Source: a virus. From it: 5,933 nt of DNA. The translations under genes were made by a program, and so were the position numbers. The notes under the pieces are model-generated. The model had not been told where the DNA came from. It was given only the letters and a program-made list of their open reading frames with translations, and did not search any database. This document shows positions 9-5,843 of this stretch, piece by piece. The stretch is from positions 1 through 5,933 of the IMG/VR virus record IMGVR_UViG_3300045988_019087; one strand, written 5' to 3'. The first letter of the stretch is position 1. The number at the start of each line of letters is the position of its first letter.

Positions 9-848
9 TTAGTATCCACTACCTCCTCCGCCGTGTTCTTTTCCTTTTTTGCTTTTGTGCGTCTTTGGTGCATCTGGTACGGTTTTTTCCGTCTTTTGCA
101 TTTGTTTGTAGGTTTTGAGTAAATCTTCTGTTAGTTGTTTTGGGCTGCTGTAGCTTGTGCTCATTTGGCTGCCCACGGCTTCTGCGAGTTGATACCATTG
201 TGAGCTGCTTTGCGATTTGCTGTAATAGCTTGTCGGTACGTTTCCGCTCATGGTTGATACGCCCAGGGCGCTTGACGATGGCATTCCCATACTTGCTCCT
301 GTAATGGTCGCTCCTGCTCCGCCTGGTGTGCTTGCTCCTCCGTTAGCAAATGCTAAAATAGGATTTAAGCCTGCTTTTTTCATGTCCTCTACTGCTCTTT
401 GGTAGCTTGTGCTGCTCATGCGCTCTTGGAAGTTTCTGTTTGCCAGTGCTTCGGCGCTGTTGTAATTCATTGCTGCATTTTGCTCGATGTGGTTATAGAT
501 TCCTTGCTGGATTGCTCCTAGCGTGTTGTACCCCATCTGCATTAACATGTTTTGACGGTTTGTTTTGCTCTGGAATGCGTTTTGTCCACCTTGCCAGCCA
601 TAGAAGCGGTCTAGATAGTCCATAATTTGTTTATCGTTTGTACCGCCTTCACTGCTTGAGCTGCTTGCTCCTCCCCCTTGGCTTTGGCTTTGGTTGTATC
701 CTTGGCTTTGGCTTTGGCTTTGCTGCCCGTATAGTCCTTGAAGGCCTTTTCCTGCTAGTGTCATTGCTCCTGTGACTAGTTGCGGGTTTTGCGCTGCCCA
801 TTGTAAACCTTTTGCAGCTATTCCACCGATTGTTGATAAAAAGCTCAT
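9..848 (-). CDS. VP2: DNA pilot / minor capsid protein VP2
   Basis: 279-aa ORF immediately downstream of VP1, the canonical position. Gly/Ser/Gln-rich low-complexity core (QSQSQSQGYNQSQSQGGGASSSSSEGG) and basic C-tail, typical of microvirus pilot proteins. Single possible ATG at 846-848 with an in-frame TAA just upstream. Stop TAA at 9-11 overlaps the VP4 start across the circular junction. Confidence 0.75.
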   Translation of the reverse strand: MSFLSTIGGIAAKGLQWAAQNPQLVTGAMTLAGKGLQGLYGQQSQSQSQGYNQSQSQGGGASSSSSEGGTNDKQIMDYLDRFYGWQGGQNAFQSKTNRQNMLMQMGYNTLGAIQQGIYNHIEQNAAMNYNSAEALANRNFQERMSSTSYQRAVEDMKKAGLNPILAFANGGASTPGGAGATITGASMGMPSSSALGVSTMSGNVPTSYYSKSQSSSQWYQLAEAVGSQMSTSYSSPKQLTEDLLKTYKQMQKTEKTVPDAPKTHKSKKGKEHGGGGSGY

Positions 849-850
849 TT

Positions 851-876
851 AAAAATAGCCCGGATTTCTCCGGGCT
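851..876 (-). terminator. Rho-independent terminator/attenuator between VP1 and VP2
   Basis: On the minus strand: AGCCCGGA-GAAA-UCCGGGCU (8-bp stem 857-864/869-876, GNRA-like loop) followed directly by AUUUUUAA and the VP2 ATG. It sits right after VP1, the gene needing the highest expression, as in the phiX174 post-J/F/G terminators. Confidence 0.55.
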
Positions 877-886
877 TCCTCCTTTC

Positions 887-2578
887 TTACAGTTTGTACA
901 AGCCCGGTACACTGTACAGTGGCATACAACGTGTGGTCTTGTTTGCTACGCGGATTGCTCCAAAGAACTGGTCTTCGTTCTGTACGATGAGTGTTCTTGC
1001 AATTTCTGCTTTGCCTTCTGCCATCCACTCCTGTGACAGCGTTGGTACTGCAGAGTAGTTGTCTGCATAGTGCCAGAAATCTAACGTGCCTGTTGCGTTG
1101 CTTCTCATGAGGCCGCTTACACGGTTCGGCTTCATTCTGTAATCCGCCCAGGCCTCCTGATAGCCGAACGTTTCTTCATCAGTTGTCGTGCCGGTTAACA
1201 TGATTTCTTTTTTCTTTACAGGCTGTTCGCCAAGGTTTGCAAACTGAGGCACGTAATAGTCCAGTCTGTCCTTTCTACTCCAGAATCGCTCAAGTCCCTG
1301 CTGGTATGTTCTGTTGTGACGTACACACATTACACCGATTACAAATCCGTGTTCCTCAAAGCTCTTTGTAAAGGAGCTTTCGTTGATAGGCGTTACTGAC
1401 ATTGCGCCTGTTTCGCCAATTGGCGTATCGTTTGCGTTCTGCTGTCCGCTTGTCTGCACGATTTGGTTCATGTTGACGTGGTAGCGTCCTCCGCCCAGAT
1501 ATTCCGGAATCTGCACCGTTTTGTCGCTGATGGTCACATCCCACAGTGCCTGTACTTGTTCACGGTATCTGCTACCGCCTCGTGCCATTGCTTCATAGTA
1601 CTGCTGGACGGCTACTGCCTTTCGCAAGTCGTTGATAGTTGCTGCAGTTACGCTGCTAAGGTCTGCGCCAAGGTATGCTACTTGGTGGTCTGAGCCAGTT
1701 CCGTCTCCAATGTTTAAGTATGCTGCGCCGTTATTTCCGTCTTGTCCGATTGCATACAGTCTATCTTTGACGTTGCCCGGGTTTGTGCTTCCGTCAAAAA
1801 AGCTGTTTGCATAGATACTTGTTTTGCTTGTGTAATTTTTGTCTGTGTATCCTGTCACCATTGCATTTCCACTCAACGGTAGCGTTACCTCCGGCCCTCG
1901 CTGTGGATAAGGCAAACAGCTTGAGAAGTAGTCGTGAAAACGGTTGACTGGAAGACATCGTCCGCCCTTGCATGCTTCTTGCAGTGTTAATTCTGCAATT
2001 TCTGTAGATGTCTCTTGGTCTTGGTATGTTTCACTTTCATCGCCATCATTTTCTATAGCTGCATTTCCTACGTTTTGGTCTCTGAAAAATTCGTTCCAAA
2101 TTTTTACGTAAGCTCTTATGGGCAGCGAATTGACTTCGAATTTTCCTTTGTTGGCTTTTGCCACTCTTGTTGGCACACCCATGTAGTCCAGAATGCTTTT
2201 TTCGAGTGGAAATGCGGTCTGGCCTGTTGTTTCGATTTTGATAGTCGGTACACTGTATGTCTTTGTCGGCATCCATGGCCTACTATCCACTTCTCCCATG
2301 AACTGTTTGAAGTTTTTCCACAGGATTCGGTTTGGACAATAGAAGTAATAAAAATCGATAAATGCATCATCCATCACCGGATATTTCGGTGTGGTCATGC
2401 GGATGATTGCGCTGGTGTCTACTTGGAATGTGTCTCCCGGCAGCACCTCGTCTACAAAGAATGGAATGAGCTTGCCGCTGTCGAACGTGGTTAGGATTGT
2501 CTGGTCACGATTGAATCGTGTTCGGCTTGTGTGCATCTGTGGCACTTGTAAGAAGTGTCTTTCATTGTTTCTGTTCAT
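887..2578 (-). CDS. VP1: Major capsid protein VP1 (Microviridae, gokushovirus-type)
   Basis: 563-aa ORF, the largest in the genome. N-terminus ...FNRDQTILTTFDSGKLIPFFVDEVLPGDTF... matches the conserved gokushovirus VP1 N-terminal signature (..S...tt.d.G.L.P....EvlPGDtf). ATG at 2576-2578 is preceded by a strong SD (AGGAAGGGAG, about 10 nt upstream). TAA stop at 887-889. Length is typical for gokushovirus VP1 (about 530-570 aa). Confidence 0.92.
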   Translation of the reverse strand: MNRNNERHFLQVPQMHTSRTRFNRDQTILTTFDSGKLIPFFVDEVLPGDTFQVDTSAIIRMTTPKYPVMDDAFIDFYYFYCPNRILWKNFKQFMGEVDSRPWMPTKTYSVPTIKIETTGQTAFPLEKSILDYMGVPTRVAKANKGKFEVNSLPIRAYVKIWNEFFRDQNVGNAAIENDGDESETYQDQETSTEIAELTLQEACKGGRCLPVNRFHDYFSSCLPYPQRGPEVTLPLSGNAMVTGYTDKNYTSKTSIYANSFFDGSTNPGNVKDRLYAIGQDGNNGAAYLNIGDGTGSDHQVAYLGADLSSVTAATINDLRKAVAVQQYYEAMARGGSRYREQVQALWDVTISDKTVQIPEYLGGGRYHVNMNQIVQTSGQQNANDTPIGETGAMSVTPINESSFTKSFEEHGFVIGVMCVRHNRTYQQGLERFWSRKDRLDYYVPQFANLGEQPVKKKEIMLTGTTTDEETFGYQEAWADYRMKPNRVSGLMRSNATGTLDFWHYADNYSAVPTLSQEWMAEGKAEIARTLIVQNEDQFFGAIRVANKTTRCMPLYSVPGLYKL

Positions 2579-2580
2579 TC

Positions 2581-3027
2581 TTACGTTTTACTCCCTTCCT
2601 CTGGTTCTTCTTTCTGTGCTTTGCTCTGTTCTTCCAGCTCTTTGAGCTTCATTGTGTTTGCCTGGGCGGTCGCAATCATCTGGTGATACTCGTGGATGTT
2701 TTGCGGCCATTCGGTTATATCCATTTCTATTCCATCCATAACGCCTTTTTCAAGGCTTTTCAGAAATTCCGGGTCGAAACTTGCCTTTCTGACAATGTTT
2801 TTGATGTCACATTCATCCGAATAGCTTTCAATTTCCTGTTGGATGTCGATTGGTTCGGTTTCCTGTAACACTTCCTGCCCTTTTTCGTCCTTTGTCCAGA
2901 CGTATTGTTTTCGTAGTTTTTCGCCCGGATTCGAAAAGAAGGGCTTTCGCCCTTCCTCGTATCGTTTATTCATGCGGTTTGCCCTCCCATACTTTTTCCT
3001 TGCCGTTAGAAAATTCGCCGGACTCAT
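2581..3027 (-). CDS. Putative internal scaffolding protein (VP3-like); probably starts at the internal ATG 2971-2973
   Basis: 148-aa ORF ending 2 nt before the VP1 ATG, with an acidic C-terminus (ELEEQSKAQKEEPEEGSKT). ATG 3025-3027 has no SD. Internal ATG 2971-2973 (MNKRYEEGRKPFF..., 130 aa) is preceded by GGGAGGG at ideal spacing, and would cut the overlap with the upstream 79-aa ORF to 8 nt. Size and position next to VP1 suggest a VP3 analogue, but there is no sequence signature I can verify. Confidence 0.4.
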   Translation of the reverse strand: MSPANFLTARKKYGRANRMNKRYEEGRKPFFSNPGEKLRKQYVWTKDEKGQEVLQETEPIDIQQEIESYSDECDIKNIVRKASFDPEFLKSLEKGVMDGIEMDITEWPQNIHEYHQMIATAQANTMKLKELEEQSKAQKEEPEEGSKT

Positions 3028-3558: not shown

Positions 3559-3681
3559 TTACTCCTTTTCTTTTTCGTTGATGCTATCATGCAGTGCATG
3601 ATAGATTTCGTCAAGCTTTTCCAAAATCTGCATCATGAGACGGATTGCCTGCTTGACGTCCTTGATGGAAATAAGTGCCAT
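3559..3681 (-). CDS. Hypothetical small protein (40 aa, predicted helical)
   Basis: Translated by hand: MALISIKDVKQAIRLMMQILEKLDEIYHALHDSINEKEKE. ATG overlaps the peptidase stop (TAACATG) and is preceded by AAAGGGGGGTG at SD spacing. Its stop lies 3 nt before the next ORF's ATG. The tight operon packing supports a real gene. It is below the 60-aa cutoff of the supplied ORF track. Confidence 0.35.
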   Translation of the reverse strand: MALISIKDVKQAIRLMMQILEKLDEIYHALHDSINEKEKE

Positions 3682-3682
3682 G

Positions 3683-4084
3683 TTACACCCCCTTTCTGTA
3701 TTTGTTGGGTCGTGTATCAACGTGCACCCAACTTGTGTAGACGATGATACCGCATTCGTTTGGAATGATTCTATTCAGTCTGTTAGCAATTTCTTTTGCG
3801 GTCATTCCTTCAATCCGAATGTCTGCTGCCATACCGCGCATATGGTAGCTGTATTTTGCTCCATCGCATTTTTTGTTCCATTCTGGTGTTCTGTATCCGC
3901 TGGTTATGTATACCGGCTTTCCGACTTGGTTTCTGAGGATGTCCAGAATAGCTACAAGGTGCGTATCTATGAAAACTACTTGCGAATCGTCTCTACATGC
4001 GAATTCTTTTACTTTGAAGTGTTTTCCAACGTTCATGTTTTTGTCTGTGTCCATGATGTAGCATTGGATGGCCATGGTGTTCAC
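3683..4084 (-). CDS. Peptidase M15 family (zinc D-Ala-D-Ala carboxypeptidase / L-Ala-D-Glu peptidase-like) cell-wall hydrolase; probable lysis enzyme
   Basis: 133-aa ORF. Carries the M15 zinc-ligand signatures SGYRTPEWN, SYHMRGMAAD (SxHxxGxAxD) and WVHVD. The ORF track starts it at GTG 4084, but the in-frame ATG at 4073-4075 (MAIQ...) has better SD spacing (GAGAGGTGaacaccATG) and is the more likely start. Stop TAA at 3683-3685. Confidence 0.8.
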   Translation of the reverse strand: MNTMAIQCYIMDTDKNMNVGKHFKVKEFACRDDSQVVFIDTHLVAILDILRNQVGKPVYITSGYRTPEWNKKCDGAKYSYHMRGMAADIRIEGMTAKEIANRLNRIIPNECGIIVYTSWVHVDTRPNKYRKGV

Positions 4085-4260
4085 CTCTCTTCATTTCGGA
4101 TTTCACCATTTTTTTGTCGCTTTAAGGTTCCAGCTCCCTTATGAGCATTTCTGGTCATTTGGGTTCGCTGTTGTTCCGGTCTATCCGGTTTCTTTGCCAG
4201 CCGCCTATTTGGCATTCGCTGGACGTTTTGAGGAGCTTCCCGGTCCCCCTTCGTGATTCT

Positions 4261-4289
4261 ATTTTAGCAGGTTTTTTACTGTTTGTCAA
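4261..4289 (-). promoter_or_regulatory. Sigma70-type promoter driving the minus-strand gene block
   Basis: On the minus strand: TTGACA (plus 4284-4289), exactly 17 nt of spacer, TAAAAT (plus 4261-4266). An A-tract upstream (plus 4291-4298 T-run) is UP-element-like. Predicted TSS is about 4254, giving a ~170-nt leader before the peptidase gene. Confidence 0.5.
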
Positions 4290-4381
4290 TGTTTTTTTGG
4301 TTTGAATGGCGCTTTAGCGCCTTGCCGTGCGTAGCGTATGCGGAGCTCGGCCTAATCCATTCATTTTTAGCGCTGTGCGCG

Positions 4382-4556
4382 TTTTCAACACTTTCAACAC
4401 TTTCAACAGGTTTTCAACAAAATATTGCACAATGATTTCCGTCATTTTGACGAACTTTCAACATTTCAACAAATTTTCCACAAGACTTTCAACAGTGTTT
4501 TTCGCTTGTTTTTAACGTTTTATTGTTATAAATTTATATTTTTCAACTTTTCCACA
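4382..4556 (+). repeat. Iteron array: about 10 same-orientation copies of 9-mer YTTTCMACA, including two DnaA-box consensus matches
   Basis: TTTTCAACA 4382-4390; CTTTCAACA 4391-4399 and 4400-4408; TTTTCAACA 4411-4419; CTTTCAACA 4455-4463; TTTCAACA 4464-4471; TTTTCCACA 4474-4482; CTTTCAACA 4486-4494; TTTTCAACT 4540-4548; TTTTCCACA 4548-4556. The two TTTTCCACA copies fit the DnaA box TTWTNCACA exactly; the others differ at one position. Followed by an AT-rich tract at about 4500-4545. Confidence 0.7.
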
Positions 4557-4593
4557 GTCTCTACTACTACGTCTACAACAAGTTAATATAATA

Positions 4594-4637
4594 TACGCGC
4601 GCATGCGTGCGCGCTACGCGCGCGCGTGCGTGCGCAC
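4594..4637. repeat. Alternating purine-pyrimidine (CG/CA/TG) Z-DNA-prone tract: two tandem ~21-nt repeats
   Basis: TACGCGCGCATGCGTGCGCGC (4594-4614) then TACGCGCGCGCGTGCGTGCGCAC (4615-4637). Each unit is fully alternating Pu/Py. Almost pure GC in a genome whose plus strand is otherwise T-rich. Highly self-complementary, so it has cruciform potential. Confidence 0.7.
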
Positions 4638-4640
4638 CGG

Positions 4641-4664
4641 CAGCCCCCTTGCTAGGGGGCGCTG
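4641..4664. repeat. GC-rich hairpin 1 (GCCCCC-ttgcta-GGGGGC, flanking CAG/CTG with a bulge)
   Basis: Perfect 6-bp stem 4643-4648/4655-4660, extendable by 2 bp across a 2-nt bulge. Confidence 0.55.
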
Positions 4665-4670
4665 ACGGAA

Positions 4671-4696
4671 GGGGGTAGGCCGATAGGCCTACCCCC
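4671..4696. repeat. GC-rich hairpin 2: perfect 11-bp stem GGGGGTAGGCC-gata-GGCCTACCCCC
   Basis: Stem 4671-4681/4686-4696 with all 11 pairs Watson-Crick, GATA tetraloop. Followed on the plus strand by TATTTTG. Confidence 0.65.
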
Positions 4697-4703
4697 TATT
4701 TTG

Positions 4704-4722
4704 CTGATAACTGATAACTGAT
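4704..4722 (+). repeat. Tandem heptamer CTGATAA x2.7
   Basis: CTGATAA CTGATAA CTGAT lies between hairpins 2 and 3. The GATA motif also forms the loop of hairpin 2. Confidence 0.45.
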
Positions 4723-4745
4723 TTACATGGAGTCTGAAGTCTATC

Positions 4746-4772
4746 ATCATCCCCCCTTCTAGGGGGGATGAT
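4746..4772. repeat. GC-rich hairpin 3: perfect 11-bp stem ATCATCCCCCC-ttcta-GGGGGGATGAT
   Basis: Stem 4746-4756/4762-4772, loop 4757-4761. The flanks CTATCAT / ATAGAG extend it imperfectly. Confidence 0.65.
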
Positions 4773-4780
4773 AGAGGGGT

Positions 4781-4813
4781 TAGCCAAGTTCTTACTTGAT
4801 AGGTACTTGGCTA
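4781..4813. repeat. Hairpin 4: 9-bp stem TAGCCAAGT ... ACTTGGCTA with a 15-nt loop
   Basis: Stem 4781-4789/4805-4813. Lies 11 nt from the VP4 stop codon. Confidence 0.5.
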
Positions 4814-4823
4814 GGTGACACCG

Positions 4824-5843
4824 TTAGAGTGTCCCTCTCTTCTTCATTTGCTTTTTGATGACTCTTTCTTTTGTTTCACATTGCTCTGCAAAGTCTGCGT
4901 TTTCATACTTTAGCCGATTTTCTGCTATGGCTGCCGCCTGTCTGTTTTGCTTAATTCTCCACAACCTTTGTGGGTTTTCAGCTTCCATCATTTTTTCATA
5001 ATAACGTGGAATTTGTGCGTGTTTTCCGTTTGTGCATTGGATGTATCCTTGTCTCCATATTTCTGTTTTGTGTTCTTGGTAATAGTGGTCTCCAAGTCCC
5101 GGTTTTAGGCTCATACATGCAAAAGGCTTTGTTTGCCCTAATTCATAGTATACGTTTGCTTTCTGGCCGTCAATTTCGTACATCTTTTTTGTGACGTACC
5201 CTGCAACATATCTATATGTCTCTGGTACTGCTTGTGCTATCTGTATTTGACCCATGCCCCAGATGTCTGTTAGCCATTTACTTGTGAAATATCCGTTGTG
5301 TTGTATCTTGTATAGGTGCTCTAGGTCTGTTGGCTTCCATCCGTATAGTATCATATGATAATGTGGTCTAGCTGTTTGCTCTCCGTATTCTCCTGCTACA
5401 AAATAGCGTAATTTGCCCCTGTAAGCCTTTCTAAGACGTTTTAGGAATTTTTGAACGTCAGTATACAGTAATGTTTGTACGCTTTTAGGCGCTTTCTCTC
5501 CTGGCTTCCAGACGTATTGTACTTTTCTCATGATTTCGCCTGTGTTTATAATCATCCCAGGCACGTGTTCATCATCATACGTTAGAGTGATAAACCACAC
5601 TTCTTCTTTCGGATAGTCTCGTGCTTCTAATTCTATACGTGTTGTCCAGTCCTCTCTCTGTCTTATTCTGCATCCGATGCATTGCCCGCATGGTATTAGC
5701 ATTACATCTTTTCTATACATCAAATCTTCATATTTTAGCTGTTTTCCGCAGACTTGAGAAAAGCGGGCAAGTGAATACACCCGCCCGCTTATTTCTTTGT
5801 TGTCAGGGTTGTACAGCCTTATCAATGGCTTGTAACATCCCAT
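4824..5843 (-). CDS. VP4: Replication initiation protein VP4 (rolling-circle Rep, HUH endonuclease)
   Basis: 339-aa ORF. HUH motif inside ARPHYHMILYG. Catalytic tyrosine motif YVAGYVTKK (YxxxY..K) as in phiX174 gpA and gokushovirus VP4. Cys-rich N-terminal region (CGQCIGC). ATG at 5841-5843 (equivalent to window positions 7-9) preceded by GGAGGAGG, which is itself formed by VP2 Gly codons. TAA stop at 4824-4826. Confidence 0.9.
   Translation of the reverse strand: MGCYKPLIRLYNPDNKEISGRVYSLARFSQVCGKQLKYEDLMYRKDVMLIPCGQCIGCRIRQREDWTTRIELEARDYPKEEVWFITLTYDDEHVPGMIINTGEIMRKVQYVWKPGEKAPKSVQTLLYTDVQKFLKRLRKAYRGKLRYFVAGEYGEQTARPHYHMILYGWKPTDLEHLYKIQHNGYFTSKWLTDIWGMGQIQIAQAVPETYRYVAGYVTKKMYEIDGQKANVYYELGQTKPFACMSLKPGLGDHYYQEHKTEIWRQGYIQCTNGKHAQIPRYYEKMMEAENPQRLWRIKQNRQAAAIAENRLKYENADFAEQCETKERVIKKQMKKRGTL

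Follow-up and report, generated by a model that had tools for sequence, protein, structure and literature searches.

The window analysed here, a stretch of 5933 bases of viral DNA (IMG/VR record IMGVR_UViG_3300045988_019087), represents one circular gokushovirus genome of 5834 nucleotides (nt) plus a 99-nt terminal overlap, with all of the genes carried by the minus strand (VP4/Rep, an M15 peptidase, three small open reading frames (ORFs), VP5, VP3, VP1, and VP2). VP4 and the peptidase gene are separated by a gap that extends exactly from the VP4 stop to the peptidase start (4085-4823; 739 nt, 12.7% of the genome), and this gap contains the subject of this work, a cassette of short repeats that matches the architecture of the unwinding unit of bacterial replication origins (oriC) and that probably serves the host initiator DnaA. 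A preliminary description, made from the letters alone, had portrayed the gap as oversized (about 740 bp, about 13% of the genome), non-coding, and organized as an origin-like, modular control region and not as spacer DNA, and this portrayal is upheld. The genes that frame the gap are:

VP4/Rep, 5843-4824, minus strand: HUH-type Rep, the sole Rep of the genome
M15 peptidase, 4084-3683, minus strand

A further statement of that description, that the gap carries no minus-strand ORF, is literally untrue, as ORFs of 43-44 amino acids are found at 4081-4215, 4155-4289, and 4314-4445. Two of the three have in-frame stops in close relatives, and the residues of the third are dictated by the repeats, this ORF moving to the opposite strand in relatives with an inverted cassette, and none of them is accepted as a gene. 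Substitution entropy in the conserved core is flat over the three codon phases (0.72, 0.76, and 0.63), and a hidden gene in the core is rejected on the same grounds: no codon periodicity, ORFs that change strand, and stops in relatives. No Rfam families match the gap region.

A gap at this position is universal in the clade. All 55 IMG/VR relatives with VP4 sequences 89-95% identical and with both flanking genes present possess one (428-979 nt, median approximately 600 nt), and parts of it are common to fifty GenBank gut gokushoviruses. Nothing comparable to the gap, and no box/trio unit, was found in the reference gokushoviruses phiMH2K, Chp2, and SpV4, and thus the gap is exceptional, as originally proposed, when measured against these genomes, but not within its own clade. 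Projected on the window, conservation is sharply modular, with a 43-nt block conserved immediately after VP4, approximately 350 nt (4286-4636) conserved gap-free, and the segment 4085-4285 unalignable. The shortest gaps (428-438 nt) retain the post-VP4 hairpin, one more hairpin, the repeat cassette, a hairpin-bearing segment referred to here as module B, and the promoter with a short leader. All of the modules named in the preliminary description are present, and they exceed chance where testable. The gap is best explained as a composite region that controls both replication and expression, and the earlier notion of an origin-like composite locus is right in outline and wrong in its assignments of elements.

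The cassette occupies 4382-4595 (approximately 213 nt) and contains ten boxes of the TTTTC(A/C)ACA type, all on the plus (antisense) strand, in arrays of four, four, and two. The string TTTCAACA occurs seven times, always on the plus strand (0.31 occurrences expected; 0 of 200 shuffles reach seven), and these copies plus the TTTTCCACA variants make up the ten units. From left to right, the parts of the cassette are:

4382-4494, plus strand: two arrays of four boxes each, of the family (T/C)TTTC(A/C)ACA, with starts at 4382, 4391, 4400, and 4411, and at 4455, 4463, 4474, and 4486
4495-4539, no strand assigned: AT-rich tract between box arrays, approximately 25% GC (0.25-0.27), poorly conserved, of low information content
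4540-4556, plus strand: trio-proximal tandem boxes, TTTTCAACT at 4540-4548 and TTTTCCACA at 4548-4556, in an 8-nt register with a 1-nt overlap
4557-4560, plus strand: spacer GTCT, 4 nt, 50% GC
4561-4576, plus strand: DnaA-trio-like repeat CTA CTA CTA CGT CTA C, the minus strand reading 3'-GAT GAT GAT GCA GAT-5'
4577-4595, plus strand: AT-rich run AACAAGTTAATATAATATA, directly after the trios, a candidate DNA-unwinding element

Between the two four-box arrays lies a variable spacer, in which a small hairpin (4439-4453) is found. The tract at 4495-4539 represents the global minimum of duplex stability, being the least stable window of the genome at 20, 30, 50, and 100 nt (the least stable 20-nt window is at 4521), and the second least stable 20-nt window of the genome (4577-4596) lies right after the trios. 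A comparison of 153 unique modules shows near-invariant box positions separated by drifting spacers, the pattern expected of an array of protein-binding sites, and the spacer that precedes the trios (consensus GCCC) likewise varies freely. The most conserved string of the cassette is CTACAACAAGTT, which hardly varies among independently collected relatives. The arrays persist in divergent relatives (VP4 38-86% identical), their units varying only as TT(T/A)TC(A/C)ACA, and TTTTCAACA, TTTTCCACA, and the perfect TTATCCACA interchange at homologous box positions. Boxes, trios, and the AT run are held within a compact core of approximately 55 nt; none of 3000 dinucleotide-shuffled versions of the genome contained a box followed after 0-7 nt by (CTA)3, and none of 500 contained five formal boxes that share a strand within 180 nt.

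The full order on the plus strand, TTTTCAAC.TTTTCCACA.GTCT.CTA CTA CTA CGT CTA.AACAAGTTAATATAATATA, is that of the basal unwinding system (BUS) of oriC, which is composed of a DnaA-box, an optional tandem box, a short GC-rich spacer, DnaA-trios, and an AT-rich element (Richardson 2016/2019; Pelliciari 2021, PMC8287927, PMC6669920). Everything that the published search rules call for (a box with at most two mismatches, an optional second box, a box-trio distance of at most 16 nt, and at least three trios) is found in the cassette. The box TTTTCCACA (4548-4556) has one mismatch to TTATCCACA and is located 4 nt from the first trio, the optional second box (for which up to four mismatches are tolerated) is TTTTCAACT (4540-4548; three mismatches), placed in the register of the B. 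subtilis boxes 6/7, the trios, with the central A and reading 3'-GAT-5' on the strand opposite 5'-TTATCCACA-3', are at 4561-4575, and the unstable AT-rich element beyond them is at 4577-4596. Written on the same strand as the window, the BUS of B. subtilis, in which box orientation is essential, reads TTATCCACA.AATCCACA.GGCC.CTACTATTACTTCTACTA followed by AT-rich DNA, and that of C. acetobutylicum reads TTATCAACA.AATCCACA.CTCC.CTACTACTATTACTACTT. In the 3'-to-5' notation of the BUS table these are AATAGGTGT.TTAGGTGT.CCGG.GATGATAATGAAGATGAT and AATAGTTGT.TTAGGTGT.GAGG.GATGATGATAATGATGAA, respectively, to be compared to AAAAGTTG.AAAAGGTGT.CAGA.GATGATGATGCAGAT for the window, and the trio reported for C. 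difficile is CACCTACTACTATTACTACTATGA. The likeness extends to the order of the elements, the strand relation of box and trios, the 8-nt tandem register and the 4-nt spacer (both also as in the Clostridium entries of the table), the 3'-GAT-5' trios being strongest beside the box, the AT-rich run beyond, and the presence of more boxes in the same direction upstream. The clostridial boxes also share the C-to-A variant of position 6 (TTATCAACA). One native example is presented by a common member of the gut Clostridia, whose oriC boxes are four copies of TTTTCCACA plus TTATCAACA, and whose oriC, between dnaA and dnaN, reads TTTTTAAC.TTTTTAACA.ATCC.CTA AGA CTA CGG CTA CTG followed by an AT run, thus following the cassette layout.

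The differences from the BUS are also apparent. The typical oriC location flanks dnaA, but the cassette is located between VP4 and the peptidase gene of a 5.8-kb single-stranded DNA (ssDNA) phage, resembling an oriC without being the origin of a chromosome. Its boxes are mostly TTTTCAACA, its better box is the trio-proximal one, while in most bacteria the better box is the upstream one, its short AT run is capped by a GC hairpin, and it is invertible and mobile between phage lineages. Extrachromosomal origins that borrow the host initiator, with DnaA boxes placed by an AT-rich region, are known from P1 oriR, pSC101, RK2, and F. Such DnaA-assisted plasmid and phage origins require their own iteron-binding Rep and have iterons of 17-22 bp. 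In contrast, the repeat units in the window are DnaA-type boxes of 8-9 nt, DnaA-trios are present, no theta-type Rep gene is found, the only Rep being the HUH-type VP4, and the cassette is shared across VP4 proteins that are 38% identical, and an iteron-type theta origin does not fit. What had been listed as three separate modules, an 'iteron array', an 'AT-rich tract', and a 'phiX-ori-like segment', is better described as a single cassette, matching the unit of DnaA-boxes, trios, and unwinding element.

The cassette, which is bounded by GC-rich sequence, has been exchanged as a unit. Of the two strands, the antisense one carries it in 146 loci and the sense one in 36 loci (inverted in approximately 20%). 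Several loci, L085 and L002 among them, have the cassette reversed in place, with both flanks unchanged in orientation, and these reversed cassettes are 76-80% identical to that of the window while the flanks are 88-95% identical, so that exchange, and not a recent flip, accounts for them. In a clade with VP4 approximately 38% identical, the cassette is located upstream of VP4 and not downstream. Both main layouts have the AT-rich end of the cassette pointing toward the GTGTCA hairpin next to VP4 (described below), with a variable number of GC hairpins between. Two orientations, two positions, and very different Reps are best accommodated by a host factor acting on duplex DNA. A small phage protein that co-occurs with the cassette in all the lineages was not found: orf53 is present in 30 of 47 mid-clade genomes and VP5 in 0 of 22 far-clade genomes. 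Among the earlier readings, the one closest to this evidence is the alternative of an acquired cassette. What has been observed directly is the anatomy of the cassette, its conservation, its independence of orientation, the fact that VP4 lineages exchange it, and its agreement with the oriC architecture. As a separate observation, orf53 and the M15 peptidase remain approximately 70% identical in a clade in which VP1 and VP4 are approximately 40% identical, and module B, the promoter, the peptidase gene, and orf53 accordingly appear to move as one block.

The orientation of the cassette does not determine the strand that is packaged. Synonymous (third-position) skews are equal between the two orientation classes, and mutation polarity is also independent of orientation. 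Among polarized rare synonymous variants of the sense strand, the frequency of C>T equals or exceeds that of G>A in each of the three clades (0.13 vs. 0.013, 0.19 vs. 0.03, and 0.195 vs. 0.127), suggesting that the sense strand is the single-stranded one. Packaging of the antisense strand, once hinted at by the T-rich plus strand, the GC hairpin that is perfect on the antisense strand only, and the antisense CTTGATA, is disfavored by this sense-strand signature of deamination. In the VP1 and VP4 coding sequences of the window and its relatives, the rare synonymous variants of the sense strand are mostly C>T and A>G, a deamination-like pattern. The sense strand is at the same time strongly A-rich and T-poor, both at third codon positions and in non-coding DNA, and an A-rich sense strand is also found in phiMH2K. 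As mutation and composition are opposed, either selection on strand composition or artefacts in low-coverage contigs must be invoked.

Of the explanations that compete with a DnaA-dependent unwinding unit, the one that survives best, while still unlikely, is that the cassette binds DnaA but opens nothing, being either a sink for the initiator, like datA or the inc regions of B. subtilis, or a DnaA-responsive operator for the nearby promoter. Ten boxes on a high-copy molecule would suit a sink, as would the independence of orientation, constraint within the cassette is strongest on the box arrays, and the promoter (4289-4261) is located approximately 100 nt downstream. However, neither a sink nor an operator needs the conserved order and orientation of tandem boxes, 4-nt spacer, trios, and AT-rich run, nor the least stable DNA of the genome exactly at the cassette, and in the divergent clade, with the cassette upstream of VP4, no single relationship to a promoter is kept.

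Also unlikely, and slightly more so, is the explanation by which the repeats (TGTTGAAA) are iterons for a protein other than DnaA, a small phage protein or another host factor, the likeness to oriC being coincidental. The family consensus TTTTCAACA is two mismatches off the classical box, the test of the formal consensus is weak (see below), and orf53 and the peptidase accompany the cassette into the divergent clade at approximately 70% identity. On the other hand, no small phage protein was detected in all of the cassette-bearing lineages, the perfect TTATCCACA replaces boxes at homologous positions, the whole syntax of box, spacer, trios, and AT run arises in 0 of 3000 shuffles, and a real oriC, from a member of the gut Clostridia, matches the cassette in both box types and BUS layout. 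Among specific host factors, Spo0A is excluded, the base required by its boxes (TGTCGAA) being present in approximately 1% of the box instances of the logo, and neither IHF nor ParB parS sites, judged by eye, fit the invariant positions.

A third explanation concerns the replication protein of the phage itself and must be weighed together with another conserved element of the gap.

Post-VP4 element, 4781-4822, minus strand: GGTGTCAC at 4815-4822, followed by a hairpin with arms at 4805-4813 and 4781-4789 and TATCAAG at 4795-4801

The stem of this hairpin covaries completely between lineages, with compensatory changes in four of its nine pairs, while GGTGTCA and the loop TATCAAG are invariant down to 45% VP4 identity. 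The element is oriented one way in 154 loci and the other way in none. In the divergent VP4 clade, an analogous GTGTCAA and a covarying hairpin of another kind (loop ATAGACAAGgAAG) are found shortly before VP4, approximately 10 nt past the AT-rich end of the cassette. With its fixed orientation and its tracking of the VP4 lineage, the post-VP4 hairpin is most likely the site recognized and nicked by VP4 (Rep), as far as can be judged from sequence comparison, and it may also serve as the VP4 terminator. The preliminary description had noted a 'hairpin cluster' here; hairpins are indeed present, but this better candidate for the nick site had been lumped in with them. VP4 belongs to the same Rep superfamily as the phiX174 and pC194/pUB110 proteins, and as in those systems a conserved short motif adjoins the rep gene, while, unlike here, the phiX174 origin has no hairpin and is located inside gene A. 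The nick core of phiX174 gene A and of the pC194/pUB110 double-strand origins is CTTG/ATA (PMC5031790, PMC7072734), and CTTGATA is present in the post-VP4 loop, but on the antisense strand, while the mutation spectrum suggests that the sense strand, which reads TATCAAG, is the single-stranded one. The loop as a whole (4790-4804) reads CTTACTTGATAGG / TTCTTACTTGATAGG on the antisense strand, near to CTTATCTTGATA / TTCTTATCTTGATA of the pC194/pUB110 origin, and CCTATCAAGTAAGAA on the sense strand, and the weight of this likeness depends on the strand that VP4 cuts.

The third explanation places the nick not in this hairpin but in the AT segment of the cassette (4577-4595, CAACAAG/TTAATAT), likened to phiX174, the cassette becoming a VP4-dependent double-strand origin with Rep iterons. 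There is a partial resemblance to the phiX CAACTTG/ATATTAATAAC, and the segment includes the highly conserved CTACAACAAGTT, the sense strand reading TTAACTTG/TTG. Yet, as a strand-specific nick site would be expected in a fixed orientation, a segment that is split between the strands in 146 versus 36 loci, with mutation polarity and skews unchanged, is unlikely to be one, and this part of the preliminary description is not sustained. Moreover, the cassette is common to VP4 proteins that are 38% identical, whereas the GTGTCA hairpin changes with the VP4 lineage, and the repeats are 8-9-nt DnaA-like boxes and not Rep-type iterons. We consider a phiX-like nick site in the cassette improbable.

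The rest of the gap, and the small ORF that appears to travel with it, are composed of the following.

Module B, 4297-4382, minus strand: three hairpins (4369-4382, 4324-4351, and 4308-4321), immediately upstream of the promoter
Alternating-GC palindrome, 4596-4634, plus strand: 18-bp hairpin with the loop CTA, unbroken only on the plus (antisense) strand
Variable G5/C5 hairpin cluster, 4641-4772, no strand assigned: hairpins at 4641-4664, 4670-4697, and 4746-4772, and a CTGATAA direct repeat at 4704-4722
Sigma-70-type promoter TTGACA-17-(TG)TAAAAT, 4289-4261, minus strand: 11/12 consensus with an extended -10 TG, serving the peptidase and downstream genes
Variable leader, 4085-4260, minus strand: ends in the Shine-Dalgarno sequence AGAGAGGTGA (4081-4090)
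orf53, 3559-3720: small ORF

Module B is co-oriented with the genes in 112 of 112 loci and is 86-90% identical even where VP4 is 38% identical. Its pairs show compensatory changes in seven of 17 cases (e.g., CG:15/UA:15), with none broken. It is tentatively proposed as a candidate complementary-strand origin or as a 3' element of the VP4 transcript. A hexamer of an ssoA-type origin (CS-6, TAGCGT) is present in a module B loop on the plus strand, but it is not conserved in the relatives, and this assignment is rejected. For the alternating-GC hairpin, a role in complementary-strand priming or at a transcript 3' end may tentatively be considered. This hairpin keeps a fixed position, and its fold is more stable on the plus strand (-23.7 kcal/mol) than on the sense strand (-17.7 kcal/mol), and among 30 unique versions the antisense fold is the more stable in 28 and the sense fold in none. 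Non-Watson-Crick pairs in these hairpins are biased in the same direction (G.T in 80 of 611 vs. 3 of 519; counted as independent states, 14 G.T vs. 2 A.C), the interruptions seen on the sense strand being A.C, that is, G.T on the antisense strand. This bias opposes the recent C>T mutation of the sense strand and agrees with its A-rich composition. The 'Z-DNA tract' of the preliminary description stands in so far as alternation is present (4596-4637), but the conserved feature is a two-armed palindrome with a 3-4-nt loop, and in locus L077 a short non-alternating hairpin is found in place of the alternating one. Intergenic hairpins have been proposed as complementary-strand origins in other microviruses. 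That the cassette itself might be such a (single-strand) origin, folded or recognized in the packaged ssDNA to prime the minus strand, is very improbable: every microvirus needs one, and hairpins with DnaA-boxes are reportedly able to nucleate a primosome (the ABC primosome) on ssDNA, but the ten boxes are all direct repeats and would yield no duplex boxes in ssDNA, inversion puts the complementary sequence in the packaged strand, and the covarying hairpins of fixed orientation (module B and the GC hairpin) are better candidates.

The remaining parts of the gap are less constrained. The G5/C5 cluster is gapped out in 80-90% of the 55 relatives, and a hairpin of this type is present in 11 of 54 relatives (absent in 43 of 54), with spacer length ranging between 0 and 133 nt. 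These hairpins come and go among close relatives, always between the AT-rich end of the cassette and the GTGTCA hairpin, and the same classes are found in the equivalent cassette-VP4 spacer of L108 and L180, where it lies on the opposite flank of VP4. Their distribution resembles that of insertions that favor a particular target. The promoter is retained in the gaps of the shortest relatives. The leader (approximately 175 nt) is unalignable or deleted in most relatives, being reduced to approximately 20 nt in the 428-438-nt gaps. Both the G5/C5 cluster and the long leader are dispensable. In L002 and some relatives an extra small ORF (MKHTYELRRFNDDD...) replaces the leader between the promoter and the peptidase, which suggests that the leader position is a slot for accessory genes. 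Two observations concern other parts of the genome. The Termite-leu RNA of Rfam has a sub-threshold match on the minus strand at 5708-5793, inside the 5' part of VP4 (28.4 bits vs. the gathering score of 51, E=0.0044), probably by chance. On the sense strand at 855-885, between VP1 and VP2, GCCCGGAGAAATCCGGGC is followed by a T run and resembles an intrinsic terminator within the structural block.

As to the connections to bacteria, a scan of metagenomes with a cassette-specific 22-base pattern returned mostly 5-6-kb contigs from the human gut, and two contigs provide leads to a host. One is L247 (ENA UESJ01001071, human gut, 13.4 kb), which carries dnaA-dnaN-recF-gyrB-gyrA and, upstream of dnaA, in the rpmH-dnaA origin region (within positions 1-800), a VP4 3' end, the TATCAAG hairpin, and the cassette. 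Its positions 55-541 are 96-98% identical to free microviruses, and its positions 518-3000 are 98.75% identical to the native chromosome of a very common member of the gut Clostridia. At the junction, which coincides with a head-to-head pair of DnaA-boxes, phage and chromosome match at 22 of 24 positions, the switch occurring within an exact 14-mer, too short for a k-mer assembler to join unaided, and thus either a real recombinant or a chimeric molecule is indicated. The other lead is L256 (OWJP01000119.1), a 41-kb contig of an Eubacteriales organism with a type I-E-like CRISPR array (repeat CTTTTCCCCGCATACGCGGGGGTGATCC) that adjoins a DnaQ-type exonuclease gene. One of its spacers (590-622) is identical to the consensus of the second box array of the cassette, and a perfect protospacer is present in 19 of the VP4-classified cassette-bearing loci (14 close-clade and five far-clade), and in 30 of all the loci collected, including metagenome contigs and some duplicates. 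CRISPR immunity is directed at the most conserved non-coding DNA of these phages. The strong Shine-Dalgarno sites and the sigma-70-type promoter also fit Firmicutes better, as we infer, while a comparison with the BUS supplement was not decisive as to the host. Homologs of the cassette were not found in chromosomes, a genome scan returning chance coding matches and one binned microvirus contig, and no match was found among the plasmids of PLSDB; matches in viruses other than microviruses turned out to be coding repeats rich in Thr/Ser.

Precedent for a link between gokushoviruses and chromosomes is presented by the enterobacterial gokushoviruses, which integrate at dif by means of XerCD, their circular DNA also persisting unintegrated (Kirchberger and Ochman 2020, PMC7062461), and in whose prophages the dif site is sometimes located at the VP4 N-terminus. 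As in these phages, a chromosomal site of the host is imitated by a non-coding motif, through which phage and chromosome may become linked. Unlike in these phages, the site mimicked is a replication origin and not the dif site of the terminus, and integration is suggested by a single contig. No convincing dif/XerCD site was seen, as only a XerD-arm-like ATTATATTAAC is recognized, with the XerC arm mismatched.

To return to the proposal that the cassette is a DnaA-dependent unwinding unit, copied from or converged on a bacterial oriC, we consider it probable, though far from certain, on the strength of sequence comparison. Host DnaA would fill the box arrays on the double-stranded replicative form, would form a filament along one strand that starts at the two trio-proximal boxes and continues over the trios, and would thereby open the adjacent AT-rich DNA. 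Such opening could load the host helicase, the replicative form then replicating or persisting like a mini-chromosome, or it could melt the nearby DNA so that the GTGTCA hairpin extrudes and its loop is presented to VP4 for rolling-circle nicking, and the boxes, at high copy, would soak up DnaA and curb initiation in the host. Binding by DnaA, unwinding, helicase loading, the aid to VP4, and the titration of the initiator are predicted from the architecture and the comparative behavior of the cassette.

A number of points weigh against this proposal. The formal box consensus (TTWTNCACA with at most one mismatch) is weakly enriched across the genome (21 vs. 13.3 expected, with 5 of 200 shuffles reaching 21), and two positions separate the family consensus TTTTCAACA from TTATCCACA. 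The run of trios is short (three perfect trios, one break, and one more), and the AT run that follows, of 19 nt, ends at a very stable GC hairpin. The near-invariant CAACAAGTT exceeds what the trio rule demands, and another factor may read it. In a minority layout among close relatives (e.g., L002, L009, L030, L032, and L052), the AT-rich end faces module B and not the VP4 hairpin, which weakens the version of the proposal in which opening helps VP4 to nick. Phages that replicate by a rolling circle have no obvious need for DnaA, and phiMH2K, Chp2, and SpV4 do without such a unit. As to the bacterial connections, L247 is a single contig of 7x coverage that could be an amplification chimera. 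Another contig, L249 (ERZ772880 NODE_4143, 9.2 kb, 120x; positions 2700-9200), joins a close relative of the phage (VP4 95% identical) not to Clostridia but to Parabacteroides DNA. The joint falls exactly on the start codon of VP4, the bacterial genes include those for an outer-membrane beta-barrel protein and a C69 dipeptidase, and, given the dif site sometimes found at the VP4 N-terminus of enterobacterial prophages, L249 could be an integration junction, or else an assembly chimera. Together with L221, which is binned with a Bacteroides metagenome-assembled genome, it conflicts with the clostridial host leads.

In a broader version, the cassette would be a portable, miniature oriC that depends on the host initiator, allowing double-stranded persistence independent of VP4, competition for DnaA, and recombination with the host oriC beside dnaA. 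We regard this version as possible but doubtful. If true, it would represent a second, origin-directed route to a carrier state or lysogeny in Microviridae, beside dif/XerCD. No description of DnaA boxes or trios in Microviridae was found in the searchable literature, by which measure a working DnaA-dependent unit would be the first oriC-type module reported in an ssDNA phage. The separation of the host-dependent part (the cassette) from the Rep-dependent part (the GTGTCA hairpin) would make the nick site testable with short oligonucleotides, and the cassette, then a natural minimal unwinding unit, could serve both the biochemistry of origins and, in gut Firmicutes, the design of vectors. Rare host leads for an abundant and uncultured phage group are provided by the CRISPR spacer and by the junction with oriC. 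The start of replication in gokushoviruses is experimentally undefined and their persistence in the gut over years is unexplained, and the cassette, if it works as proposed, would provide a concrete mechanism for the replication and persistence of the double-stranded form and for interference with initiation in the host.

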